Origin: Candidatus Curtissbacteria bacterium RIFOXYA1_FULL_41_14
Lineage (GTDB): Bacteria > Patescibacteriota > Microgenomatia > Curtissbacterales > GWA2-41-24
Direction: 5' to 3'
DNA length: 64,000 bases
Assembly (NCBI GenBank): GCA_001775095.1
Contig: MFCA01000025.1
Coordinates: 116,075-180,074 of the forward strand
The first letter of the stretch is position 1, and each line of letters begins with the position of its first letter. Positions 1 through 50,078 of this stretch are shown here, one piece after another. Below the pieces are notes generated by a model that saw only the letters and a program-made list of their open reading frames with translations, was not told the origin of the DNA and made no database searches. Made by a program: the position numbers and the translations under genes.

Positions 1-272
1 ACAAAACGCTTTAATCTTTTTAAATTCATAAAGTCTTCCACTTTCTTTTATTCTGGGGAGTCGAGTTCCTCGAATATGAGTGGTCTCGGAATCGAAGATC
101 TGAACTCGACGACTCCAGAATCTAATTTGGGCCAGAATTTCAGGGGCAGAAAAAATCAAGAGGCAGGCAGATCGTTGATGAAGTATTCTATACTAAGTCT
201 TGATCCTACGCAAGTACAACGAGGTCCGACCTCGTCAAACTCCTCGGAGGTGAAGTAACGTATAATTAGACC

Positions 273-3549: not shown

Positions 3550-4662
3550 TCATCTGAGATCTAAAGTTTCGCCCTTGAATGTAATATTTTTGGGTTTGAT
3601 GATGACTTGGCGGGGTCCTTTTTCTACGTAGCCGGCATTAAGACTTTTAAATCCGTTTTTGGGGATGATTTTTAGAGCTCTCGCGACGTCCCGTGACGGG
3701 AGGAAAATGGCGTAGTCCTGACCCATGTTAAAAGTCTGGTACATTTCAAAATCGTTGATTTTGGCATGTTTTTGAATAAAAAGAAATACTTCCTGAGGAT
3801 CAAAAATCTTTTCAACAACATAAGAACATTTTTGGCGCGCGCGCATGATCTTTCGCAAACCATGACCGGTAATATTTGAGATGTAATGGATTTGAATGCC
3901 AGCATCCAAAAGATCCTGGATTAATTTGGCATAGATGTTTGTTTTGGTAAGGATAGCTTCACCAAACGTTTTTCCATTTTTAAGTTTCGTTGCATAACCT
4001 TTTGGTAATTTAGCGGCAACTGCCCGGGCAAGGGAAATTCCATTGGCATTAATACCGGCAGACCTTATGAGTATAATTCTATCACCAATTTTAAGGTTTT
4101 GGTCTGTTACAAGGCGCTTTTTACTTTCGATTATTCCGACTGCAGAACCGGCTAAATCAACAGTGTTCGGCTTAATGATTCCTTTGAGTGTTGGTGTCTC
4201 CCCACCGCCCCAAGTCGCGCCCGCAAGATCACAAGCCTTTTTCCAGCCACTGATAAAATCTGTCATTCTATCCCTGTCATGTAACCAGTTATTATCTTCA
4301 ACTGCCCAATAAGCATGGACTACCAAAGGTTTTGCTCCAACCGTTGAAAGATCATTGATAAATGTAGCGACCGTATCCTGGGCAATAACATCATAGTAAG
4401 TTTTGCCGGTTATCTTTCTTACATCATCAGCAATTAAATTTTTGGTTCCAAGACATTCGACGACCGACGCCATATACACATCGCCCTGCTTCCAGACGAA
4501 GGCCGATTCACCGCGGGTTGCAGATACTTCAGAAAAGTTTGCTTTTTTAAGATGAACAGCAGTTTTTGCTGCGGCCTGTTGAGAAAGCTTGTTTACAGGA
4601 TCCTTCGTGTAATAATTATCGCCGACTTGGGCGTAAGTAATTTTTTGTCTCTTCATAATCAA
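3550..4662 (-). CDS. purM: phosphoribosylformylglycinamidine cyclo-ligase (AIR synthetase)
   Basis: PurM-like N- and C-domains over the expected length, within the pur operon. Confidence 0.8.
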   Translation of the reverse strand: MIMKRQKITYAQVGDNYYTKDPVNKLSQQAAAKTAVHLKKANFSEVSATRGESAFVWKQGDVYMASVVECLGTKNLIADDVRKITGKTYYDVIAQDTVATFINDLSTVGAKPLVVHAYWAVEDNNWLHDRDRMTDFISGWKKACDLAGATWGGGETPTLKGIIKPNTVDLAGSAVGIIESKKRLVTDQNLKIGDRIILIRSAGINANGISLARAVAAKLPKGYATKLKNGKTFGEAILTKTNIYAKLIQDLLDAGIQIHYISNITGHGLRKIMRARQKCSYVVEKIFDPQEVFLFIQKHAKINDFEMYQTFNMGQDYAIFLPSRDVARALKIIPKNGFKSLNAGYVEKGPRQVIIKPKNITFKGETLDLR

Positions 4663-4670
4663 CTCAATAT

Positions 4671-4734
4671 GTCATTCTGAGTGAAACGAAGAATCTCTAG
4701 TTCGTTACAGATCCTTCACTTCGTTCAGGATGAC
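4671..4734. repeat. miniature palindromic repeat 'GTCATTCTGAGTGAAACGAAGAATCT...CAGATCCTTCACTTCGTTCAGGATGAC'
   Basis: 64-bp imperfect palindrome, intergenic. Same family as 5412..5477 and 48533..48596. Resembles the widespread 'GTCATCCTGAGCG..GAAGGATCTC' repeat that generates spurious ORFs. Confidence 0.7.
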
Positions 4735-4738
4735 ATCC

Positions 4739-5401
4739 TCATAAACTTTGTAACAATTCTGGTGTCACGTCCGATAAGCTTTTTACTATTTTATCAGCTT
4801 TTGCGAAATTATGACTTTTTGTGTATTTATTGGGAATAGCAATTACTTTCATACCGGCTTTTTTTGCCGCAACAATTCCCGTTTCTGCATCTTCCAAAGC
4901 AACACAATCAGCGGGTTTTATTTTCAGTTCCCTTGCAACTTGTAAGTAAATATCAGGAGAGGGTTTTGGCTTTATTTCATCACTTGCCCCGACGATTACA
5001 TCAAATAGATCTTTTGCTTTTATTTTGTTTAGCATAAAAAAGACTAGATCGACAAATCTATTTGAAGCTAAAGCGATCTTCATTTTTTCTTCCTTTAGCA
5101 TCCTGACAAGATCAATAAAACCCGGTATGACTGTGAGCTTTTTCTCTACAAGATCTCGAAATATCTTTCTTTTTATCTTCTTTAATACTTCTATGTCCTC
5201 TTTCAGATTATATTTTTTACTAACTTGTTTATACGTCTCACCCGCCAGTCCGACAGTGTGGATTAGGCCTTCTTTGTTATATTGTGGAGTCTTTCCATAC
5301 TTTCGCAGGAGCTTTTCCAAGGACAATGATTCTATTGGTTCGCTGTCTACAATAACTCCATCCATATCAAAAATGACCGCTTTTATCTTTTTGCTCTTCA
5401 T
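4739..5401 (-). CDS. HAD-superfamily hydrolase (beta-phosphoglucomutase/phosphatase-like)
   Basis: Motif I 'VIFDMDGVIVDSEP'. Start moved to 'MKSKKIK' because the upstream codons lie inside the palindromic repeat. Confidence 0.7.
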   Translation of the reverse strand: MKSKKIKAVIFDMDGVIVDSEPIESLSLEKLLRKYGKTPQYNKEGLIHTVGLAGETYKQVSKKYNLKEDIEVLKKIKRKIFRDLVEKKLTVIPGFIDLVRMLKEEKMKIALASNRFVDLVFFMLNKIKAKDLFDVIVGASDEIKPKPSPDIYLQVARELKIKPADCVALEDAETGIVAAKKAGMKVIAIPNKYTKSHNFAKADKIVKSLSDVTPELLQSL

Positions 5402-5411
5402 AACATCGACT

Positions 5412-5477
5412 GTCATTCTGAGAGAAACAAAGAATCTATTATTTCAATGCAGATCCTTCACTTCCGTTCAGGATGAC
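5412..5477. repeat. miniature palindromic repeat, second copy of the 4671..4734 family
   Basis: 'GTCATTCTGAGAGAAACAAAGAATCT...CAGATCCTTCACTTCCGTTCAGGATGAC'. Confidence 0.7.
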
Positions 5478-5484
5478 AAAAAAG

Positions 5485-6261
5485 TTAATTCTGTTGCGCA
5501 AACTTTATCATTTCCTCGAAAATAAACGCTCCGTGGGGTTTGGTAATTTTCTCCCTTCGCCAGTTTGGATATTGGGTGATGTCGACAAATTTTTCCGGGT
5601 GAGGCATCAGACCTAAAATTCGGCCTGTCGGATCGCAAATGCCGGCAATAGCGTTTTGCGATCCATTGGGATTCTGCGGATAAGTCTGTGTCGGTTGACC
5701 GCTCTCGTCAACATACCTGAAAACGACTAAACTTTCATCTTCGACCTTTTGGATTGTTTTTGGCTCGGCGTAAAACTTGCCTTCGCCATGATTGACTGCG
5801 ATTCTAATAAGTTCATCTGAACCGTTGACAAAAAGACATTTGCTATCCCCTGTTTTTATTGTCACCCAGCGGCATTCAAAACGGCCGCTGTCATTACCAG
5901 CCAAAGTAACATCCATTTGGCCAAAGTTGTTAAAAGGTAAAAGACCGGTTCTGACCAGGGTTTGAAAACCGTTACAAATTCCCAAAATTAATCCCTTTTT
6001 TGAAATGAATTCTTGAAGTTCATTTTTCAAAAAACTAATAAGCTCCACTGCCAGAATTTTCCCGGAAGCGACATCGTCTCCATAAGAAAACCCGCCGGGA
6101 AGAGCCAAAATTTGGAAAGAGGATAACTTTTTACTTTTGCCTCTTAGTTGGTTAACATGAACCATCTCCGGCGCTGCCCCGAACTTTTCAAAAGCATAGA
6201 AAAGCTCCTCGTCACAATTAGTTCCGTCAGTTCTAAGAATGCAAATTTTCGGCTTGATCAT
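5485..6261 (-). CDS. purQ: phosphoribosylformylglycinamidine synthase, glutamine amidotransferase subunit
   Basis: Class-I GATase with catalytic 'GICNGFQ' Cys and 'HPE' His/Glu. Sits directly downstream of purL. Confidence 0.85.
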   Translation of the reverse strand: MIKPKICILRTDGTNCDEELFYAFEKFGAAPEMVHVNQLRGKSKKLSSFQILALPGGFSYGDDVASGKILAVELISFLKNELQEFISKKGLILGICNGFQTLVRTGLLPFNNFGQMDVTLAGNDSGRFECRWVTIKTGDSKCLFVNGSDELIRIAVNHGEGKFYAEPKTIQKVEDESLVVFRYVDESGQPTQTYPQNPNGSQNAIAGICDPTGRILGLMPHPEKFVDITQYPNWRREKITKPHGAFIFEEMIKFAQQN

Positions 6262-6262
6262 G

Positions 6263-9199
6263 TTAATGAAATATCTCCCTCATTGGTTTTTGCCAAGCAT
6301 TTTTGAGTTTATCTAAATCAAGATTACACAGATTCTTGCTACCACTGAATACACTGATTGTTTTGTCGGCTACTGTTTTTCCAAAAATAGCGTACGGTAT
6401 TCCAGTAAAAAGTTTTTTGGCAATTTGCGGATTTTCAACTTCAACTAAAAATGTTCCGGCTGTTTCAGAAAAAAGGATAAAGTCGGGACGTAGATTCACC
6501 CCCGGGGTGTCCTCATGGTGTCGTCCTGACTTCACCCCGGGGGTGTCAGTCTGGGTGACTACTGAAGACAGGTCGACCTCTGTCCCGCAATTTCCTCCAA
6601 AACACATTTCGGCAAGTGCCGCAGCCAAACCGCCTTCAGATATGTCATGACAGGATAAAATTTGACCTTGTGTTATTCCTTTTGTGACCGAGCCAAAAAC
6701 TTTCGTAAGAGACTTGAGATCAATCTTTGGAATTTCTGGATCTTTCGTGCCGAGAACATCGAAATAAGTAGATCCGCCAAGATTTTTAAAATCAGGTTTA
6801 CCAACTAAAACTATCGTTGATCCTTCTGATTTGAAATCAGAGCTGACTGTTTTTCTAACATCGGGAATTTTGCCAAAGACAGAAATAAGAAGGACAGGTG
6901 GTATCTTGAGAATTTTCCCCGAGGGGTACCTGTAAGTTGACGAAAGACTGTCTTTACCTGAAATAAATGGCATTTTTAAAAGTCTGGCCATATCAGAGCA
7001 GGCATCCACTGACTGGTCTAAGTCAAAAAGTGATTCTTCGTCGGGAAATGGCCAAATGAAATTGTCGATAAGAGCGGCGTTTTTAATATCACCACCGCAG
7101 GAGATGAAATTTGAAACCGCTTCAACAATTGCCCAAATGCTTCCCCCGTATGGATCAATAAGGTTAAGGGTGGGATTTAAACCATGGGTTATTACAACAC
7201 CGTATGGTTTTTTGAGGATTGGTCTAACAATAGTCCCGTCATTGGGTCCGTCTAAATTCACCCCGCTAAATGGATGCAGGGCATTTGTCCCTTGGACATT
7301 GTGGTCATACATTCTGACAATTGGTTCTTTGGAGCAGACATTGCCATGAGAAAGAACCTTCTCAAAAATCTCCTGCCAGTCATCTGCCTTTTTAGGAAGA
7401 GGTGGTAGTTTCTTGTTTCTTGTTTCTCCCGACCTCGTCTCGACTCGGTCGAGGACGGGTTGTTGCTTGTTTCTTGTTGTCTTCATGACTCTTTGAGGTA
7501 GTCCGTGATGTAAAAATTGCATTTCCAGATCACAAACTGGCTTTTTATCAAAAGTAACTCTTAGACGTTTAGAACCGTCGAATTTACCAATTACAGTCGC
7601 CTCAACGTTGTGAAGTTGGCAGATTTGAACAGCCTTTTTGAGATTTTGGGGATCAATTGCTAAAACCATTCGTTCCTGCGATTCGGAAATAAAAATTTCC
7701 CAAGGGGAAAGACCGGAATATTTAAGCGGCGCTTTCTCCAAAAAGACACGGGCGCCGATTTTTTGGCCCATCTCACCGATTGCCGACGAAAATCCACCGG
7801 CTCCGCAATCGGTGATTGCTCTTATTAATCCTTGATCGCGAAGGTCGTAAACTGCATCGATCATTCTTTTTTCCTCAATGGCATTGCCGATCTGAACCGC
7901 TGAACCTAAGACCGTTATTGTCCGATCTGTCATTTCTCCGGAGGAAAAAGTTGCTCCATGGATACCGTCTCGGCCAGTTCTACCCCCGATTGTTACAATT
8001 AGATCCCCTACTTTGGGGAATTGTTTTTTAGCGATTTTTTTGGGGATCAAACCGTAAGAACCGACCCCCACTGTGCATTTGGCGCGAAAATCCGGATGAA
8101 AATGCACGGATCCGTTATTTGTAGGGATGCCTACCCTGTTTCCGTAATCGCGGACTCCGGCAACAACTTTGCGCAGGATGTAGTCGGGAGGTAAACATCC
8201 GGGAGGAATAGATTTTGATGGAAGATCAGGCGGCGCAAAACAAAAAATATCAGTTGATGCGATAATTTTTGCACCTTTACCTGTTCCTAAAACATCACGA
8301 AAAACTCCACCGGAACCGGTCATTGCCCCACCGTACGGTTCAATTGCGCTAGGACTGTTGTGAGTTTCGACTTTGCCGGAAATTGCCCATCCGTCATAGA
8401 AATCAATGACACCGGAGTTATCGACAAATGCCGAAATGATCAGTTTTTTATTGTAGTTTGCTGTTTGCCGAATCCTGTCTATCAAGGGTTTTTTGACTTT
8501 TCCATCAACAATCAATTTTGCTTTGAAAGTCTTGTGGACGCAGTGTTCACTCCAGGTTTGAGCCAGGACTTCAATTTCGCAATCAGTCGGATCACGGCTG
8601 ATTTTGGCAAAATAGTTTTTAATTATCTTCATTTCCTGGCGGTTTAAGAAAAGACGATCTTTGGAAAGTTCCATTAACTGGCTATCTGATAGATTTCGAA
8701 CTGGGATTTTTTCGACTTTACCCTTTTGACCGGAAATCATCAGTGTCTTAGGAGGTTTTTTGACAACTTGTTCGACCGTTTCATTAACCAGAAGCCTATT
8801 CGTTATTATTGAGAGATCTTTGTCTTTCACCTTTCCCCAAAAGGCGTATTCGGTTGAGGTATCGGCAGCAGTCAATTTAATTTTCAAATCAGATGCTGCC
8901 TTGAGGAGCGATCCAACTTCAGGATTCATTACGCCGGGTTTATAGGCGACTTCGATTTTTTTATCGAAGCTGGAGAAAATTGGTTTGTTAAAAGACATTT
9001 GTTGATTAATTGGTTCAAATAAAACAGCTTGAGAAAATTTTTGGGCATCAGAGAAAGAGATTCCTTCAAGGCGGTAGACTTTGGATGAGCGGATATTTTT
9101 GATTGATTTGATGCCAAGCGTCCTTTTAATTTCGGCGAGGAGCTCCTGGCCTTTGGAATCGGTGGGGCTATTTGCAGTAATCCTTATTTCATAAATCAT
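6263..9199 (-). CDS. purL: PurS-PurL fusion: FGAM synthase II with an N-terminal PurS domain, carrying two in-frame repeat insertions
   Basis: First ~80 aa are PurS-like, followed by PurL AIRS/AIRS_C domains. At 978 aa it is ~150 aa longer than PurS+PurL. The extra length includes 'TDTPGVKSGRHHEDTPGV' and 'QQPVLDRVETRSGETRNKK', both encoded by palindromic repeats. Confidence 0.85.
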   Translation of the reverse strand: MIYEIRITANSPTDSKGQELLAEIKRTLGIKSIKNIRSSKVYRLEGISFSDAQKFSQAVLFEPINQQMSFNKPIFSSFDKKIEVAYKPGVMNPEVGSLLKAASDLKIKLTAADTSTEYAFWGKVKDKDLSIITNRLLVNETVEQVVKKPPKTLMISGQKGKVEKIPVRNLSDSQLMELSKDRLFLNRQEMKIIKNYFAKISRDPTDCEIEVLAQTWSEHCVHKTFKAKLIVDGKVKKPLIDRIRQTANYNKKLIISAFVDNSGVIDFYDGWAISGKVETHNSPSAIEPYGGAMTGSGGVFRDVLGTGKGAKIIASTDIFCFAPPDLPSKSIPPGCLPPDYILRKVVAGVRDYGNRVGIPTNNGSVHFHPDFRAKCTVGVGSYGLIPKKIAKKQFPKVGDLIVTIGGRTGRDGIHGATFSSGEMTDRTITVLGSAVQIGNAIEEKRMIDAVYDLRDQGLIRAITDCGAGGFSSAIGEMGQKIGARVFLEKAPLKYSGLSPWEIFISESQERMVLAIDPQNLKKAVQICQLHNVEATVIGKFDGSKRLRVTFDKKPVCDLEMQFLHHGLPQRVMKTTRNKQQPVLDRVETRSGETRNKKLPPLPKKADDWQEIFEKVLSHGNVCSKEPIVRMYDHNVQGTNALHPFSGVNLDGPNDGTIVRPILKKPYGVVITHGLNPTLNLIDPYGGSIWAIVEAVSNFISCGGDIKNAALIDNFIWPFPDEESLFDLDQSVDACSDMARLLKMPFISGKDSLSSTYRYPSGKILKIPPVLLISVFGKIPDVRKTVSSDFKSEGSTIVLVGKPDFKNLGGSTYFDVLGTKDPEIPKIDLKSLTKVFGSVTKGITQGQILSCHDISEGGLAAALAEMCFGGNCGTEVDLSSVVTQTDTPGVKSGRHHEDTPGVNLRPDFILFSETAGTFLVEVENPQIAKKLFTGIPYAIFGKTVADKTISVFSGSKNLCNLDLDKLKNAWQKPMREIFH

Positions 9200-10550: not shown

Positions 10551-10709
10551 AGATAAATTTCTAAATCCTAAATCCTAAATCCTAAATCCTAAACAAATTC
10601 TAATGACCAAAATCCAAATTTCAAAACTTTTTATTTTTTTTGAATTTAGATTTTTGATATTGTTTAGAGTTTAGATATTAGTGCTTAGGATTTATTTAGG
10701 TCAATTAGG

Positions 10710-11695: not shown

Positions 11696-11770
11696 CTTCC
11701 ACTCTCTGCGTCATTCCCGCAAATGCGGGAATCTATACAATAATTTGATTTGGGGAATAAAAAAGATTAC

Positions 11771-12241
11771 GGGAAGAGAGTAAGCCAGATTCTGTTTTAC
11801 CCTTCGATTACACTCAGGGTAAAACCCTGAGCTTGTCGAATGGGTTTTAACGATCATCTATCTCGAAATGACAATTTGATCATTTCGGCTCGCCTTTTGG
11901 GCGGGCTGCCCCTACTTAGAACCTCCCGGAAGCATGGTCAAACGGTTCTAGTCTGGGTTGCAACAGGTAGGATTGTCAGCGTTTCACTCCCGCTCGTCTC
12001 TGTGACTCTCAAGTCTTGTCAGTTCAAGACCTGTTCTAAACCCCGTATGCGGGGAACATCTGCTGTGGAGCAGACAAGGGTCTAGACACCAGCTATTAGC
12101 CTTCGACTGTACTCAGGCTACCCTGAATTACATTGAAGGGTACTAGTCGGAGCTTACACTCCGTCCCTTGCTTCCTGTTGTCTGGACTTTCCTCCAGGTA
12201 CCGTACGGTACCTGGCGATCGTTCTTCTTCCCGAAATCAGA
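11771..12241 (-). ncRNA. rnpB: RNase P RNA (bacterial type)
   Basis: Minus strand carries the conserved 'GGAGGAAAGUCCAGAC' (P4 5' strand) near the 5' end and 'ACAGAAUCUGGCUUA' (P4 3' strand) near the 3' end, plus 'GUGAAACGCUG'-like segments. A T-run and the hairpin 'GATTCCCGCATTTGCGGGAATG' follow the 3' end. Confidence 0.7.
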
Positions 12242-24204: not shown

Positions 24205-24245
24205 CCGTCATCCTGAGTCCGGCTTTGCCGGACGAAGGATCTAGA

Positions 24246-25031
24246 CTATGTGGAAATAGACGAATATCTTCTAAGAGCAAAATGCCAAAATTTGATGCCT
24301 ATTCCAAAAAAAGTTAGACCGATAGCAAAAGAAATCAATATCCACTGCCAGGATAAAATTCCGAGAAGCACTTTGGCAGGAATCGAAACCATTACCGCAA
24401 TTGGGATAATAAAGGTTAAAACAAATTGGACTAGTGATGAATAAATATCAACAGGGAACCGCCCCATTGTCATTAAATCCCGATAAACCCAAATTTCGGA
24501 AGAGATTTCTTGAGTCAGAATAGAAAGGGCGATAATAACAACATGGATGGAGAAAGCGATTAGAAGTGCATTGAAGCAGAGAAGCAAATAGAAAATAAAG
24601 TTATAAAAAGTGATGGATGTTTCCAGTCTCGCAACGATTATTCCTAAAACTATTACCACTGGTACTAAAGTGGCTAAATCCAGAAGGTCAATAATATCTG
24701 AAACAATTCTAAATAATGTGTTTACCGGCTGAGTAAGAATATAATCTATTTCTCCTTTATTAATCATCCAGCCAATCGCATATGCACTCCTTAGGAAAAA
24801 CTGACTTACGATATCAATTAAATTGAATGTCATAAAAAAAAGTAAGGTTTGATAGAGGCTAAACCCGGCCAAGGTTTGGGTTTTGGTTAAAAGGGCAATA
24901 ATAAAAATAAAAAAGAAAGAGAAACGAATTAACTTTCCTGAAATCAAAAATATTGAATGGAGACGCGATTCAATGTAATATTCACGAAATCTCATCTTGG
25001 CTAATCTCGTCCATACTCGTAGGTATTTCAT
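24246..25031 (-). CDS. ABC-2 type transporter permease
   Basis: 6-TM ABC-2 topology. Start trimmed to 'MKYLRV' because the upstream codons are two palindromic repeats. Confidence 0.55.
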   Translation of the reverse strand: MKYLRVWTRLAKMRFREYYIESRLHSIFLISGKLIRFSFFFIFIIALLTKTQTLAGFSLYQTLLFFMTFNLIDIVSQFFLRSAYAIGWMINKGEIDYILTQPVNTLFRIVSDIIDLLDLATLVPVVIVLGIIVARLETSITFYNFIFYLLLCFNALLIAFSIHVVIIALSILTQEISSEIWVYRDLMTMGRFPVDIYSSLVQFVLTFIIPIAVMVSIPAKVLLGILSWQWILISFAIGLTFFGIGIKFWHFALRRYSSIST

Positions 25032-26955: not shown

Positions 26956-27161
26956 GTCATCGCGAGTCGAATCTTGTTCGACGTGGCGATCTTTTATATT
27001 CGCTCGCAGAACACCGTGGACTATTAGTCCACGGATGAATGCGAGAGAATACATACTTCCGAGGAGCGGGATGTTCTGCTCGCTCATGTAAACTTAAAGA
27101 ACAATACCGAGGACTCTTAGCCCTCGGAAGTTTATAGATTGCTTCGCTGCGCTCGCAATGA
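26956..27161. repeat. ~206-bp structured element with terminal inverted repeats 'GTCATCGCGAG...CTCGCAATGAC' and several internal perfect hairpins
   Basis: Termini are reverse complements of each other. Internal palindromes include 'CCGTGGACTATTAGTCCACGG' and 'CCGAGGACTCTTAGCCCTCGG'. The 97-aa ORF inside it is likely spurious. Confidence 0.5.
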
Positions 27162-27233
27162 CAACATCTTCTTCTTTCAGTCGGGTTGATTTTTAGCCTT
27201 ATTTGGGGTATATTGCAGCCTTGGAGGGAACAA

Positions 27234-27617
27234 ATGCCGGAATATGACAAAGAGAGAGCTGCAGGGAGTCTGACTGGTGAAACAACTAGTACCAGTTCTG
27301 ACGAAGCGATCAGGGCAATTCTTAGAGATTTAGCTCGTGAATATCACGGTCTCCGTAACACAGAGAAGACTGATGACGCAGAATTGTTCTCAGCAACAGA
27401 ACAATTGCCTCCGAGACCGATAGGCAGTACATTCCAGCAACCCATAATTACTGAAATTAAGCTTCCTGATTCTTTGAGAGAACCTTCTGAGGAATTAACT
27501 GGAAATCAAATTGCGGGGATTAAAGCAGAACAAAAGGTAGCGTATGCGGAACAAGATGATAGGAAAAGACGAAAATTTCGTTTTCCCCTTGGACTTCTAA
27601 ACGTACTTTTGCATTAA
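27234..27617 (+). CDS. hypothetical acidic low-complexity protein
   Basis: Upstream 'TTGATT-17-TATATT' and RBS 'GGAGG' 7 nt before the ATG. No recognisable domain. Confidence 0.45.
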   Translation: MPEYDKERAAGSLTGETTSTSSDEAIRAILRDLAREYHGLRNTEKTDDAELFSATEQLPPRPIGSTFQQPIITEIKLPDSLREPSEELTGNQIAGIKAEQKVAYAEQDDRKRRKFRFPLGLLNVLLH

Positions 27618-31510: not shown

Positions 31511-31584
31511 CGGGGTGTAGTTCAGTTGGCCAGAACGCCAGGCTGGGGGTCTGGAAGTCGTCGGTTCAAGTCCGACCACCCCGA
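31511..31584 (+). tRNA. tRNA-Pro (anticodon GGG)
   Basis: Cloverleaf by hand: acceptor CGGGGTG/CACCCCG, D-arm GTTC..GAAC, anticodon arm CCAGG-CU GGG GG-TCTGG, T-arm GTCGG-TTCAAGT-CCGAC, discriminator A. No encoded CCA. Confidence 0.75.
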
Positions 31585-31807
31585 CCCTTCGACTCACTTC
31601 GTTCGCTCAGGGTCTTCGACCCGCGAAGTGGGGTGAAGGGCGTGGAGACAGCGCAGAATTCACTTGCAGAAATAAAACATTTAAAGTTGTATACAAAGAG
31701 GAATATGCAACTTTAAAAATTTCACCCCCGATGTGTACAAGCATTCATACGTCGGGATTAAAATTGCTATTTGACAAAGTTCAATTAAATAGGGTTATAT
31801 ATTAGGT

Positions 31808-32478: not shown

Positions 32479-32987
32479 TTTCTTGCAACCACTGAAGACA
32501 CTGATTTATTTTCAGTATTTTCAGTTTTCCTTTCAGTGATTTCAGTGGTTGCAGGTTTTTTGATCACTGAAGGCGCTGAGTCTTTGAATTTATCCTGGTA
32601 AGGGTGATCGGTATCCGGATAGATGTAGAGTTTCTTGAGCATAAGTTTACCAAGTTTGGACTTAGGAAGCATACCAATAACCGCATGTCTTATTAAATTT
32701 TCTGGTTTTTGTTTTCTCGCCTGAGAGGCGGTTTTAACATAAAGACCGCCCGGATATTGGGAATGGTGATAATATTTTTTCTGACTTTCTTTCTTGCCGG
32801 AAAGAATTATATCTTTGGCGTTAATGACAACAATATAATCCCCTGTATCCAGATTAGGGGTGTAATAGCTTTTATTTTTACCCATTAGGATCTGGGCGGT
32901 TTCCGATGATAAACGTCCTAAAATTTTATTTTTAGCATCAATAAGATGCCACTCTCTTTGAATGTCTGCTGATCTAATGTTTTTCAT
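32475..32987 (-). CDS. rplM: 50S ribosomal protein L13, with C-terminal extension
   Basis: L13 N-terminal 'WHLIDAKNKILGRL'. Confidence 0.85.
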   Translation of the reverse strand: MKNIRSADIQREWHLIDAKNKILGRLSSETAQILMGKNKSYYTPNLDTGDYIVVINAKDIILSGKKESQKKYYHHSQYPGGLYVKTASQARKQKPENLIRHAVIGMLPKSKLGKLMLKKLYIYPDTDHPYQDKFKDSAPSVIKKPATTEITERKTENTENKSVSSVVARK

Positions 32988-46271: not shown

Positions 46272-47110
46272 TTAGCGACTCCTATTGCCTCTTTGGATAG
46301 CAATATATTTCTATTCTTAATAATTTCGAAGGCATTGAGATTGGCCATACGACTGACTAGTATTCTCTGAATATTTCGCGTCGCCAGTTTCACATCTTGT
46401 CCATTGTTTACCGGTTTGTCGGAAATTACTAAAAGACAATTTCCTTGTAAATCTAATTTTTTAAGTAAACTTGCAATAATTTTCGTCTTAGCTTGAATTT
46501 TTTCGATATTAGTAATTACTTTGACACTTCCTTCTTGGGCTTTTAATGAAAATGCACTCACCAGAGCCTTTCTTTTCATTTTCTTAGGCAAAGTTAAAGT
46601 TACCTTTCTGAATTTAGGGCCATGGGCAACACCTCCGCCTACCCAAAGCGGTGAGCGGATTGATCCTGCGCGGGCTCTGCCAGTGCCTTTTTGGCGCCAG
46701 GGCTTGCGGCCCCCGCCTCTTGTCTGGGAACGAGTTTTTGTAGAACCCGCGTGAACTGACTGGTTTACCGAATAGATGCGAATTGCCTGGGCTAAAAGCT
46801 TTTCGTTTGGCTTTTGACCGAAAATTTCGCGAGGAAGAGCAACTTTGCCAATAGATCGGCCGTTTATGTCAAAAGCAGGAGCCAAAAGTCCTCCACCAGC
46901 GGATTTAACCTGCCTGCCGGCAGGCAGGCTCTTGACGGTTTTTGTCTTTCTCGGTGCCTTCTGTTTATCTTCTGTGCCTTCTGTGATTATCTTTTTATCC
47001 ACGATCTTAGAACTGGTCTTCGATCTAATTTTGACCTGTTTAGATTTTGCTATCTTTGTTATTTTTTTTGCTGCTGCCATAATTATTTCTCTTGAAACCA
47101 CTGAGAGCAC
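46268..47110 (-). CDS. rplD: 50S ribosomal protein L4, with ~75-aa N-terminal extension containing an in-frame palindromic repeat ('LPAGRQ')
   Basis: L4 core begins near 'FDINGRSIGKVALP'. The extension contains 'CTGCCTGCCGGCAGGCAGG'. Confidence 0.8.
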   Translation of the reverse strand: MLSVVSREIIMAAAKKITKIAKSKQVKIRSKTSSKIVDKKIITEGTEDKQKAPRKTKTVKSLPAGRQVKSAGGGLLAPAFDINGRSIGKVALPREIFGQKPNEKLLAQAIRIYSVNQSVHAGSTKTRSQTRGGGRKPWRQKGTGRARAGSIRSPLWVGGGVAHGPKFRKVTLTLPKKMKRKALVSAFSLKAQEGSVKVITNIEKIQAKTKIIASLLKKLDLQGNCLLVISDKPVNNGQDVKLATRNIQRILVSRMANLNAFEIIKNRNILLSKEAIGVAK

Positions 47111-47137
47111 TGAACGTTACTGAATACACTGAAATAT

Positions 47138-47917
47138 TTATTCAGTGGTTTCAGGTCTTTTCTCAGTGACTTCAGTGGTTACAGGCTTTGTCCCTTCTGT
47201 TCCTTTTGTTTTCTCTGATACTTCTGATACCTGTGATGCTTCTTCTTTTGTCTCCTCTTCTTCTTTCTCCTTAGGAGGTGGAGGAGGTGTGTATCCCTTT
47301 ACCTTTCCAGTTTTCTTAATAACCAAAAGGCCATTTATCGCACCGGGAACTGAACCCTTGACTAAAAGTAGATTTTTACCAGGATCAACTTCAATAACTT
47401 CAAGACCACCAATTGTTAATTTTGAAACGCCCATATGACCAGCCATCTTTTTACCCTTAAACACTCTTCCAGGGGTGGTAGTTTGTCCGATCGATCCCGG
47501 TGCCCGATGGCGGTCGGATTGCCCGTGAGTTTTTGGACCCCCTGCAAATCCCCATCTTTTGACTACCCCTGCAAATCCTTTCCCTTTCGTAATACCTGTC
47601 ACTTTAACTTGATCTCCAGGTTCAAAAATTGAAACCGTTAGCTTTTCACCGGCGCAGTATTTTGACGATTGATCTTCCAATGGTTTGACTACTAGTACTT
47701 CTTTGACAACTCTTGGGGCAAATCCGCAAATCTTTACAAACGCATTTTCGGTTTTTTTAACTTTTTTCTTCTTCCCAAACCCCAGTTGTACCCGATCGTC
47801 GCGAGTTCCTAAAATAATATTAGGTTCGGCCACTACCTGAGTTACCGGAATGCGATGACCAAATTGGTCAAACCGGACTGACATTTCCTTTTTTAAACCG
47901 ATCAATGTATTAATCAT
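47138..47917 (-). CDS. rplC: 50S ribosomal protein L3, with Pro/Glu/Lys-rich C-terminal extension
   Basis: Start set at 'MINTLIGLKKEMSVRF'. ~50-aa low-complexity tail. Confidence 0.85.
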   Translation of the reverse strand: MINTLIGLKKEMSVRFDQFGHRIPVTQVVAEPNIILGTRDDRVQLGFGKKKKVKKTENAFVKICGFAPRVVKEVLVVKPLEDQSSKYCAGEKLTVSIFEPGDQVKVTGITKGKGFAGVVKRWGFAGGPKTHGQSDRHRAPGSIGQTTTPGRVFKGKKMAGHMGVSKLTIGGLEVIEVDPGKNLLLVKGSVPGAINGLLVIKKTGKVKGYTPPPPPKEKEEEETKEEASQVSEVSEKTKGTEGTKPVTTEVTEKRPETTE

Positions 47918-48532: not shown

Positions 48533-48596
48533 GTCATTCTGGCTTGTCCAGAATCTGATTCTGGATGCGCTCGTTTCACTCGCTTACCAGAATGAC
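48533..48596. repeat. miniature palindromic repeat 'GTCATTCTGG...CCAGAATGAC', related to 4671..4734
   Basis: 64-bp inverted repeat in the tuf-rpsJ spacer. A partial copy lies at 48738..48765. Confidence 0.6.
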
Positions 48597-48848
48597 AAAT
48601 ACGGTTCGAGTTGGAAAGTCGAGAAGAAAACTATTCTAAGCGGTTAGGCTTGAAGTAAAATCTTGTGATTATCATACCTTTATAGTTCTCGACTATGCTC
48701 GAACAATAATTAGATTCTATCGTCCTTCGATAAACTCAGGACTCCAGAATGACATTTGATTGTCAATTCTATATCAGCAGGTCGCCCTTCGACAAGCTCA
48801 GGGCGCTCCTCTGATATATCAGACTCAGCGGAGCTGAGGGCTGATATC

Positions 48849-48881
48849 AAAAAAAAGACCCCTGAGGCAAAGCTTAGGGGT
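48849..48881 (-). terminator. rho-independent terminator downstream of tuf
   Basis: Minus strand: GACCCCTAAGCTTTGCCTCAGGGGTC followed by T8. Confidence 0.75.
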
Positions 48882-48893
48882 CGATTCTGCCAT

Positions 48894-50078
48894 TTAAGCA
48901 AGAATCTTGGAAACCACTCCGGCACCAACCGTGTGGCCGCCTTCGCGGATTGCAAACCTTAAGCCTTCTTCAAGAGCAACGGGGGAAATTAACTTTACCT
49001 TCATTTTAATATTATCACCCGGCATAACCATCTCAGTGCCCTCGGGTAAAGTGGCTTCGCCGGTAACATCAGTCGTTCGAATATAAAATTGAGGCCTGTA
49101 GCCGGTAAAGAACGGTGTGTGACGACCGCCTTCTTCCTTGGCTAGAATATAAACTTCCGACTCGAATTCGGTGTGCGGAGTAGTGGTGCCGGGTTTTGCC
49201 AAAACCTGCCCTCTTTCAACTTGATCTTTTTCGACGCCCCTAAGCAAAACGCCGATATTGTCCCCGGCCTGACCTTCGTCCATCGACTTTCTGAACATTT
49301 CAACTCCGGTGACCACAGTTTTTTTAGTTGCTTTAATTCCGACAATTTCAACCTCTTCATTAACTTTAACAACTCCCCGCTCGACACGACCGGTGACCAC
49401 CGTTCCCCGACCCTTGATTGAAAAGACATCTTCAACCGGCATCAGGAAAGGTTTGTCTAGATCGCGGGCAGGAGTTGGGATTTTCTCATCAACTGCAGCC
49501 ATTAATTCTTCGATTGACTTAACTGCTTCGGCATCGCCTTCCAGGGCTTTTAAGGCTGAACCGCGGATAATAGTGGCATTTTTGCCGTCAAACTGGTATT
49601 TATCTAAAAGCTCACGGATCTCCAACTCGACAAGATCTAAAAGTTCCTTATCCTGGACCATATCCGTCTTGTTCAAATAGACTACCATTGCCGGAACATT
49701 AACTTGGCGGGCCAAAAGAACGTGTTCCCGGGTTTGAGGCATCGGGCCGTCGGGAGCGCTAACAACTAAAATAGCGCCGTCCATTTGGGCGGCACCGGTA
49801 ATCATGTTTTTGATGTAATCTGCGTGTCCGGGAGCGTCAATATGGGCATAATGTCGTTTTTCGGTTTCGTATTCGACGTGGGTGATATTGATGGTGATTC
49901 CGCGCTGTTTTTCCTCCGGTGCATTGTCGATCTGATCGAAAGACTTGGCCTGAGCCAGACCTTTTTTGGAGAGAACCTGAGTGATTGCGGAAGTTAACGT
50001 GGTCTTGCCATGGTCGACGTGACCAATCGTTCCGATATTAACGTGCGGTTTAGTTCTTTCAAATTTTCCTTCAGCCAT
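48894..50078 (-). CDS. tuf: elongation factor Tu
   Basis: '[10 protein letters not shown]', 394 aa. Confidence 0.95.

Follow-up and report, generated by a model that had tools for sequence, protein, structure and literature searches.

The small palindromes found between genes in a 64,000-nucleotide (nt) stretch of contig MFCA01000025.1 (in the following, the window), which stems from a Candidatus Curtissbacteria bacterium (Microgenomates; candidate phyla radiation, CPR) of the Rifle aquifer, are most probably inverted pairs and solo copies of a short hairpin repeat from the superfamily of CGTC/TGTC-tagged repetitive extragenic palindromic (REP) sequences, also described as Ssn-related motifs (SRM), whose partner enzyme is the nuclease Ssn. 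According to this reading, to which we assign a probability of about 80%, ssn genes reside between inverted repeat units, scattered units are satellites, and the copies turn over by recombination or repair. It draws on the repeat family itself, a structure backed by covariation, a conserved tag and 3' C, the association of the repeats with ssn genes, polymorphism between strains, and an ssn cassette at the purL/purQ junction of sister lineages. The repeats form a real and significant family; its kind is known, and its form is a variant that lies outside of the published definition.

Tagged Hairpin Units in the Curtissbacteria Window

In the analysis, the window was located on contig MFCG01000011.1 of assembly GCA_001775235.1. 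A structure-based scan of the window and about 10 kb on each side of it (83 kb of contig) recovered 13 GTCAT-tagged units, 11 of which lie in the window. Eight of these 11 are arranged as four inverted pairs (4671-4734, 5412-5477, 26956-27162, and 48533-48596; Table 1), and the other three are solo. An earlier reading made from the sequence only had named three of the pairs (4671-4734, 5412-5477, and 48533-48596) as the main copies, and we found them precisely there. All 11 tagged window units start with the tag (T/C)GTC, and a 3' C follows every window unit; the arrangement TGTC-AT…AT-C, in which the stem opens with complementary A-T at positions 1 and 2, is common to all of them. Pairs of GTCAT…ATGAC with a terminal complementarity of at least 9 nt occur five times in the window versus 0.43 times (maximum 3) in dinucleotide shuffles. 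The palindromes at 4671-4734 (64 nt) and 5412-5477 (66 nt) are close relatives, each built from two inverted unit copies; the 26-nt unit GTCATYCTGARNGAARNGAAGRATCT, present twice in inverted orientation with its GTCAT ends outward, yields one 64-nt palindrome. With these two, the pair at 48533-48596 has just the termini GTCATTCTGG…CCAGAATGAC in common. All copies are intergenic and lie among the genes for AIRS-family purM, HAD, and GATase_5 purQ, between those for an ABC-2 permease and diacylglycerol kinase, between those for an ABC ATPase and an unannotated open reading frame (ORF), and between those for EF-Tu and S10. The gene context proposed at the outset (purM-HAD-purQ, tuf-rpsJ, and the flank of a tRNA gene, here tRNA-Pro) is borne out.

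Phylogenetic Spread and Predicted Fold of the Repeat Unit

The 26-mer GTCATYCTGARNGNARNGAAGRATCT is found as an exact match at no fewer than 120 loci (at least 120) of species-representative genomes, scanned with one genome per species, and in at least 120 viral contigs (IMG/VR), some of which carry several copies per contig. Among the listed loci are representatives of the Nitrospirota, Saccharibacteria, Chloroflexota, Acidobacteriota, Bacteroidota, Clostridia, Gemmatimonadota, Planctomycetota, Omnitrophota, Verrucomicrobiota, Proteobacteria, and others. The suspected likeness to a ubiquitous 26-mer thus holds, and the widely seen GTCATCCTGAGCGNAGCGAAGGATCTC ("SAAKDL/RFAQDD") sequence is in fact the same thing. 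Far from being unique to the window, copies are present in most bacterial phyla, and the proposal of a true repeat family stands. The commonest unit versions read GTCATCCTGAGCG[C/A]AGCGAAGGATCT.

To assess the structure of the unit by comparison, we assembled 147 units from about 120 genomes, using a pattern without constraints on the pairing positions, and counted base combinations with the kinship of the copies ignored. Positions 6:22 hold C-G in 81 units, T-A in 59, and other combinations in 7; at positions 11:17 the corresponding numbers are 110 for G-C, 28 for A-T, and 9 for others, and at positions 12:16 they are 134 for C-G, 8 for T-A, and 5 for others (Fisher p for covariation, 2e-32 and 2e-22). 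Other stem variants pair as well (ATGCT/AGCAT, ACCCT/AGGGT, and ATCCC/GGGAT). This strong covariation argues for the fold GTC-ATYCT-GA-RY-GNA-RY-GA-AGRAT-C, in which two G·A pairs and 2 bp would separate a 5-bp stem from the triloop. Its commonest core, GCGAAGC, is Hirao's unusually stable DNA mini-hairpin. Conservation ends abruptly at position -1 or -2, 5' of GTC, with a T there in 77% of the units. In a set of 204 hairpin cores picked without any requirement for a tag, the three upstream nucleotides are GTC in 98%, position -4 is occupied by T in 91%, and a C directly follows the stem in 202 cores (99%).

Association of the Repeats with Genes for Small GIY-YIG Proteins

We clustered the ORFs located within 600 nt of units at 120 genome loci selected by the motif. 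The sole protein family that recurs within 25 nt of units is a GIY-YIG protein of about 95 amino acids (aa), encountered at 5 of the 120 loci listed, and in all five its ORF lies between two inverted units. The proteins are 93-102 aa long, PF01541 is the only domain found in them, the nearest solved structure is that of the UPF0213 protein BH0048, and residues Y5, Y7, Y17, G19, R27, H31, E64, and N83 are invariant. Judged by their sequences, these ORFs classify as predicted members of the Ssn family: they possess a single GIY-YIG domain of about 95 aa, match SsnA over >75% of its length with E<1e-10, and keep the catalytic Tyr/Tyr/Glu residues. The family is large (12,881 clusters at 50% identity, at E up to 1e-3) and homologous to the Neisseria SsnA locus (tblastn against N. 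gonorrhoeae: 46% identity, E 4e-16, 95% coverage).

An independent test started from 80 metagenome loci fetched by protein similarity alone. Of 77 of these loci, 46 have GTCAT in the 150 nt upstream of the gene and 51 have ATGAC in the 150 nt downstream; up to 250 nt from the ORF, the two motifs reach a density of 5-9 per kb versus 1.0 per kb elsewhere. An inverted repeat (score of at least 12) joins both flanks in 40% of the protein-selected loci versus 0.6% of shifted controls, and a window-type unit lies within 300 nt of the gene in 65 of the 80 loci. Perfect 32-nt inverted repeats frame the GIY-YIG ORF of an isolate, Hymenobacter sp. GOD-10R. The homologues in S. meliloti, N. gonorrhoeae, A. 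lipoferum, and Sphingobium each have CGTC repeats of their own host's type at their flanks. About 1 Mb of viral contig sequence was searched, and no Ssn-like ORF was found in it. The association between GIY-YIG genes and repeats reported here is an independent rediscovery of the result of Chenal et al. (2025). As a side observation, the S. meliloti record CP090106.1 (our locus L217) carries two tandem ssn homologues between gltA and lpxB, with an inverted CGTC repeat after each; this 3.7-Mb record, labelled plasmid pSymB in PLSDB, looks like a mislabelled chromosome, and the 2.17-Mb N. gonorrhoeae "plasmid" records have the same look.

A cassette of this kind is also present in sister lineages of the window genome. 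A 97-aa Ssn homologue is encoded between purL and purQ in a relative with 88% nucleotide identity (L210; 42% identity of its protein to the N. gonorrhoeae locus, E 8e-25) and in a third lineage (L213-L216); in the window the same junction is empty (Table 1). CGTCATTCTGGAG…CGATAGAATCT borders the gene at one end and its inverted partner at the other; the start codon of the gene abuts the left-hand unit, and the loop of the right-hand unit contains its stop codon. In L210, the cassette has a terminal repeat (CGTCATTCTGGAGCGAAGCGATAGAATCTC) of the same subfamily as the solo unit at 48712-48753 in the window. The initial ~18 nt of purQ, start codon included, are replaced by the cassette in L210 (150-560), and the next ATG in frame lies about 20 codons further on. 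The purQ gene of L215 is complete, and the ATG within the unit's ATGAC might even serve as its start codon.

Relation to Published Repeat Systems

CGTC-tagged REPs (CGTC-1 to -4) possess a CGTC or TGTC tag and a stem that starts with AT, occur mostly as inverted dimers, include dRS3 of Neisseria and RPE-4 and RPE-6 of Rickettsia, and have no dedicated transposase; RNA roles have been argued for them (Di Nocera et al., 2013, BMC Genomics 14:522; PMC3733652). SsnA (NMV_0044) of N. meningitidis, a 94-aa protein with GIY-YIG as its single domain (cd10448 group), binds the tagged dRS3 hairpin (NTS) as single-stranded DNA (ssDNA) only and cuts it a few nt 5' of the tag; neither RNA nor duplex DNA is a substrate (Chenal et al., 2025, Nat Commun 16:2388; PMC11893778). 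The three bases preceding the palindrome (5') are required for cleavage, the C right after it matters most for binding, and Ssn homologues of three other species act alike. SRMs are found near 71% of the Ssn homologues and on both sides of 42%, ssn is present in 81% of the genomes with >200 SRMs, and SsnA lowers transformation by NTS-bearing DNA, trimming the incoming transforming DNA (PMC11893778). Membership of the window repeats in this described system had escaped the sequence-only reading. Since the proteins are homologous, the homologues elsewhere are flanked by CGTC repeats matching their hosts, and the bases conserved in our tag-blind cores are those identified as the determinants of SsnA, we tie the window family to the Ssn system.

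With the Ssn/SRM system the window family shares the unpaired (C/T)GTC 5' of the palindrome and the C directly 3' of it, the occurrence in tens to hundreds of copies that are often inverted pairs, the wide phylogenetic spread, and the gene for a single-domain GIY-YIG protein of ~95 aa (predicted cd10448 type) with repeats on both sides; the window even has one canonical copy (11709-11736). It differs in that the published motifs have a perfect GC-rich stem of 8-9 bp and a loop of 4-5 nt, whereas the units studied here have 5 bp, tandem G·A, 2 bp, and a GNA triloop, and in that the host is a CPR bacterium with no ssn gene seen within 83 kb. CGTC-tagged REPs resemble the window repeats in the CGTC tag that is often TGTC, the A-T start of the stem, the short unpaired tail, the inverted dimers (often heterodimers), and the intergenic, occasionally intragenic location. 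Their stem of 8-9 bp, loop of 4-5 nt, and CCA tail contrast with the CT(C) tail, the stem interrupted by G·A, and the 3-nt loop seen here, and they were reported without an enzyme and mainly from alpha-proteobacteria. In stem, loop, and tail, window-type units deviate from these REPs, and only 11709-11736 has the 8-bp stem and 4-nt loop. Free-standing GIY-YIG homing endonucleases (Seg) of phage T4 are likewise encoded by small intergenic genes that are gained and lost with a co-conversion-like replacement of flanks; unlike the proteins considered here, Seg and I-TevI have a separate DNA-binding domain and cut double-stranded DNA, and no multicopy hairpin repeats are associated with them.

Turnover of the Repeats among Close Relatives

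The sequence-only reading had suggested comparing related genomes for the presence or absence of copies at orthologous sites, and this comparison revealed two differences between assemblies that are 99.9% identical. The L212 contig, which matches the window at this level over 3.1 kb and 1.7 kb, has the 5412-5477 pair and is without the 4671-4734 pair. In L212, the stop codon of the HAD gene overlaps the start codon of purM (ATGA) within the polymorphic tract (Table 1), and the sequence also deviates from the window in the final ~43 nt of HAD and in ~23 nt ahead of purM. About 8 kb upstream of the window, a GTC-tagged inverted pair follows the adenylosuccinate synthase gene (L224, 1595-1705) and is absent from a 99.9%-identical assembly (L223, 1685-1705); here the flanking 7-18 nt are replaced, and two extra substitutions are found nearby. 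The left-hand unit type of the pair at 48533-48596 recurs in this upstream pair. The tuf-rpsJ spacer itself was rejected as a polymorphic site, being identical in five other assemblies. In the relatives with 88% identity (L209-L211), both pairs of the purQ-HAD-purM region are missing and the genes overlap at both junctions.

No target-site duplication was detected at any of the three filled/empty sites compared; the flanks were replaced instead. Turnover of the copies looks like the exchange of short tracts that alter the neighboring 10-45 nt, as would result from recombination or repair, and not like cut-and-paste. Since the sequence outside of 4671-4734 resembles that outside of 5412-5477 (GATTATGAAGAGACAAAAA versus GTTATGAAGAGCAAAAA), one of the two purQ-HAD-purM pairs may have been copied from the other, a possibility to which we attach little weight because A-rich gene starts of that sort are common. 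The variable linker of purL contains in-frame palindromic inserts: at 7420-7460(-) the window has an imperfect one, CCCGTCCTCG…CGAGGTCGGG (9/10 complementary), and in a related lineage (L213, 5795-5850) the linker harbors a full GTC-tagged inverted pair that is translated as RHSGEQSDARIDSGQSQND. The palindromic elements of Rickettsia resemble these inserts in being in-frame.

Proposed Mechanism and Alternative Explanations

The unit, when present as ssDNA, would fold into a hairpin whose 5-bp stem, led by A-T, is extended by two sheared G·A pairs and 2 bp and closed by a GNA triloop, with the 5' (T/C)GTC and the C right after the stem both unpaired. Such folding might take place whenever the DNA becomes single-stranded, during uptake, replication, or repair. 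An Ssn enzyme would then bind the stem and the 3' C and cut 5' of the GTC tag, and this cutting could affect which incoming fragments recombine. With its position between two inverted units, ssn would resemble a tiny insertion sequence, of which units and pairs without a gene would be the satellites. The replacement-tract polymorphisms fit turnover driven by recombination, and in the Curtissbacteria they fit a link with the recombination of incoming ssDNA. Action of Ssn on window-type units within the Curtissbacteria host is predicted by this scheme, and so is the route by which copies would reach new sites.

Several points weigh against the assignment to the Ssn system. By nearest-neighbor calculation, the proposed fold is the minimum-energy DNA structure of single units, but its stability is low (-1.1 to -2.7 kcal/mol, nonsignificant z). 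Because these energies are no better than those of shuffles, the case for the hairpin rests on comparative covariation, that is, on counts in which related copies are not discounted. Neither the window nor the 83 kb of its contig contains an ssn gene or a remnant of one. The polarity of the change at 4647-4775 is uncertain: a loss by recombination in L212 is as possible as a gain, since the 36-nt "empty" allele is nearly identical to that of the relative with 88% identity. It also has to be presumed that Ssn binds and cuts the window-type motif GTCATYCTGAGCGNAGCGAAGRATCT as ssDNA. Finally, the published SRM string, HGTCWYN(0-2)YYVSBRHN(0-5)WNVSBRGN(0-2)RNCYNB, matches 0 of the 147 window-type units; its single match in the window is 11709-11736, and it does match the control loci (L217-L220). 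Membership among the SRMs rests on architecture and gene association because the string fails in this way.

Of the 80 loci selected by protein, which represent the associated Ssn clade, the string likewise matches just 1, and together these two numbers indicate a distinct structural class of SRM that is tied to a large clade of Ssn homologues. The repertoire of Ssn motifs therefore appears much broader than the published search pattern captures. We did not find this class described in the literature searched, which left out the supplementary tables of PMC11893778; searches of the literature with DNA strings and with the pseudo-peptides SAAKDL and RFAQDD returned primers and chance matches only. 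It is conceivable, at somewhat less than even odds, that GTCATYCTGAG-CGNAG-CGAAGRATCT constitutes a major uncatalogued Ssn recognition class, with a tandem-G·A/GNA mini-hairpin in place of a long perfect stem, one that may be the most widespread of all (most bacterial phyla, CPR, and viral contigs), and that in the streamlined genomes of Curtissbacteria its copies mark hot spots of short-tract recombination that part overlapping genes, create start codons, and perhaps persist without a resident ssn.

The repeats might instead be mainly RNA elements that serve in termination, exonuclease blocking, or differential mRNA stability, as proposed for classical REPs, with the link to Ssn being secondary; we regard this as unlikely. 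Copies are indeed located in co-directional operon spacers (purQ-HAD-purM, tuf-rpsJ, and ABC permease-dgkA), but where solo units separate co-directional genes, neither orientation is favored (21 with the sense of the genes versus 29 opposite), and since relatives without the repeats have overlapping genes at the junctions, no RNA element is needed there. While the transcribed (-) strand folds with -25.9 kcal/mol (z -5.2) at 4671-4734 and with -21.1 kcal/mol (z -3.3) at 5412-5477, the changes in pairing across the family are nearly all of the Watson-Crick type with G·T rare, and a plain RNA stem-loop would not need the unpaired GTC and 3' C that are conserved at 98-99%. The RNA roles advocated by Di Nocera et al. 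for tagged REPs (PMC3733652) have to be set against the finding that SsnA does not bind RNA (PMC11893778).

Quite improbable, in our judgment, is the notion that the hairpin pairs are independent host repeats that merely offer a preferred landing site to a homing-type GIY-YIG gene with no role in making or maintaining them. The exactly central position of the ssn ORFs in the inverted pairs would suit such a landing site, yet ORF and repeat are interlocked through the stop codon in the right-hand loop and the start codon at the left-hand unit. Units occur without ssn nearby at 115 of 120 genome loci and at 120 of 120 viral loci (among those listed), and the window genome has repeats and no ssn in 83 kb; on the other hand, the tag and C conserved in the repeats are the very bases on which SsnA depends biochemically, and across phyla every ssn clade has a matching type of unit at its flanks, which argues for co-evolution of enzyme and motif.

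Movement by a transposase, be it a DDE enzyme acting on the terminal inverted repeats of miniature inverted-repeat transposable elements (MITEs) or a RAYT/IS200-type HUH enzyme acting on the hairpins of REPINs, is highly improbable and was rejected as a model: inverted pairs, sharp ends, many copies, and intergenic location are all as expected from it, but target-site duplications are missing at the three polymorphic sites, no transposase family recurs beside units at the 120 loci listed, where GIY-YIG is the sole recurrent neighbor, and Di Nocera et al. found none for CGTC repeats (PMC3733652). The designation "miniature palindromes" used earlier is thus apt only in a loose sense; as a MITE-like label it fails, the unit being a single hairpin of 26-42 nt with an unpaired GTC tag. 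The architecture does parallel that of REPIN-RAYT (Bertels and Rainey, 2011; PMC3116915), where inverted hairpin pairs are also the repeated entity, a small enzyme gene is flanked by the repeats, and an ssDNA hairpin is recognized via an adjacent unpaired tag. That tag is GTAG rather than GTC, however, and the enzyme is an HUH Y1 tyrosine transposase rather than a hydrolytic GIY-YIG nuclease, which has no covalent strand-transfer chemistry; the turnover observed here leaves replaced flanks.

Each pair of Ssn enzyme and motif is a potential tool for the site-specific cutting of ssDNA and thus of practical value. The family also accounts for the "VILSEAKDL / LRFAQDD" pseudo-proteins, which are among the commonest sequences in metagenome annotation, and explains mis-set start codons. 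An example is the HAD gene, which in public records is mostly annotated from the ATG in a unit's GTCAT (pair 5412-5477), giving 225 aa instead of 220; its true start is likely 5401, which provides the usual MKSKKIKAVIFDMDG N-terminus. In keeping with what the sequence-only reading had said of spurious ORFs, the ORF 26957-27250(-) traverses the 207-nt element, and 48710-48955(-) is annotated as an 81-aa gene in two other assemblies.

Individual Copies and Neighboring Features

Table 1. Repeat units, their relatives, and sites of variation in the window
Feature	Position	Strand	Location	Details
Untagged relative	50..123	+		ATTCTGGGGAGTCGAGTTC…GAACTCGACGACTCCAGAATCT; TTTT in place of TGTC
Polymorphic tract	4647..4775		holds the 4671-4734 pair	129 nt in window versus 36 nt in L212
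Inverted pair, tags outermost	4671..4734		HAD-purM spacer	units 4671-4696(+) GTCATTCTGAGTGAAACGAAGAATCT and 4709-4734(-) GTCATCCTGAACGAAGTGAAGGATCT
Inverted pair	5412..5477		purQ-HAD spacer	units 5412-5437(+) and 5451-5477(-)
Empty site	6261..6263	-	purL stop/purQ start, TAA-C-ATG	ssn cassette here in two sister lineages
Solo unit, canonical NTS/dRS3 type	11709..11736	+	adjoins RNase P RNA gene	CGTCATTCCCGCAAATGCGGGAATCTAT; 8-bp stem, 4-nt loop
Untagged hairpins, CTGAG…CGAAG core	11799..11846		37-nt insert in RNase P RNA gene	11799-11820 and 11823-11846
Solo unit	24207..24242	+		GTCATCCTGAG-[TCCGGCTTTGCCGGA]-CGAAGGATCT; GC hairpin in loop
Composite element, 207 nt	26956..27162			units 26956-26992(+), stem ATCGC/GCGAT, and 27136-27162(-) GTCATTGCGAGCGCAGCGAAGCAATCT
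Untagged hairpin, CTGAG…CGAAG core	31584..31614	-	directly after tRNA-Pro	
Abutting inverted pair	48533..48596		tuf-rpsJ spacer	48533-48556(+) GTCATTCTGGCTTGTCCAGAATCT, 7-bp stem; 48557-48596(-), identical stem, larger loop
Solo unit	48712..48753	-		TGTCATTCTGGAG…CGATAGAATCT
Untagged hairpin, tandem-GA core	48781..48806	-		GCGCCCTGAGCTTGTCGAAGGGCGAC

Several of the further copies reported in the sequence-only reading could be retained with altered boundaries. The "206-bp element" at 26956..27161 does exist and is one nucleotide longer, with a complete unit at both ends. As a whole it folds with -81.9 kcal/mol (z -6.2), and its strongly folded core (26993-27135) includes two hairpins that are alike, CCGTGGACTATTAGTCCACGG and CCGAGGACTCTTAGCCCTCGG. 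This core has no match among any locus fetched in the analysis, and the idea that the element is a decayed ssn gene was ruled out, given that there is no protein similarity. The copy at 24207..24246, which had been considered hybrid or fragmentary, is a complete solo unit that occupies the whole gap from the stop of the ABC-2 permease gene to the start of the diacylglycerol kinase gene, and the alleged fragment at 48738..48765 turned out to be the outer part of another complete solo unit. The hairpin placed at 31588..31640 is related and lacks the GTC tag; within the supposed degenerate relative at 41..272, just 50-123 is related (an ATTCTGG…CCAGAATCT stem without a tag), with the ends of stem and loop matching a tagged unit 8 kb upstream of the window, and the remainder is not. 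The one canonical unit, 11709-11736(+), had been overlooked; its DNA fold has -8.0 kcal/mol (z -5.3). The Rfam check that had been recommended produced no hit at the gathering threshold over the whole window, and an Rfam search of the repeats and of a full ssn cassette at E up to 10 gave chance-level matches only; the family is known elsewhere, as tagged REP/SRM.

The HAD phosphatase gene, 4739-5416(-) in the window, separates purQ from purM both there and in the relative with 88% identity; in the third lineage (L215, 1475-3364) no HAD gene intervenes and purQ abuts purM. The RNase P RNA gene (RF00010) that adjoins the canonical unit extends over 11765-12234(-) and scores 76.9 bits (E 1.5e-23); since the gathering score is 100, a standard Rfam scan misses it. 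The score is lowered because of insertions, one of 135 nt in place of 13 in the model and the 37-nt insert with its two hairpins. At 10562-10694, in the spacer that parts the genes for GARS and formyltransferase, the heptamer TAAATCC occurs in runs that are arranged in inverted orientation, with arms of 57 nt that are 70% complementary. A second, unrelated palindrome family is represented at 32484-32553 and 47093-47183 (TGMAACCACTGARRRCACTGA … TCAGTGAYTTCAGTGGTTRCA; 21-nt arms, 81-90% complementary), and one of its copies is situated at the junction of the L3 and L4 genes.

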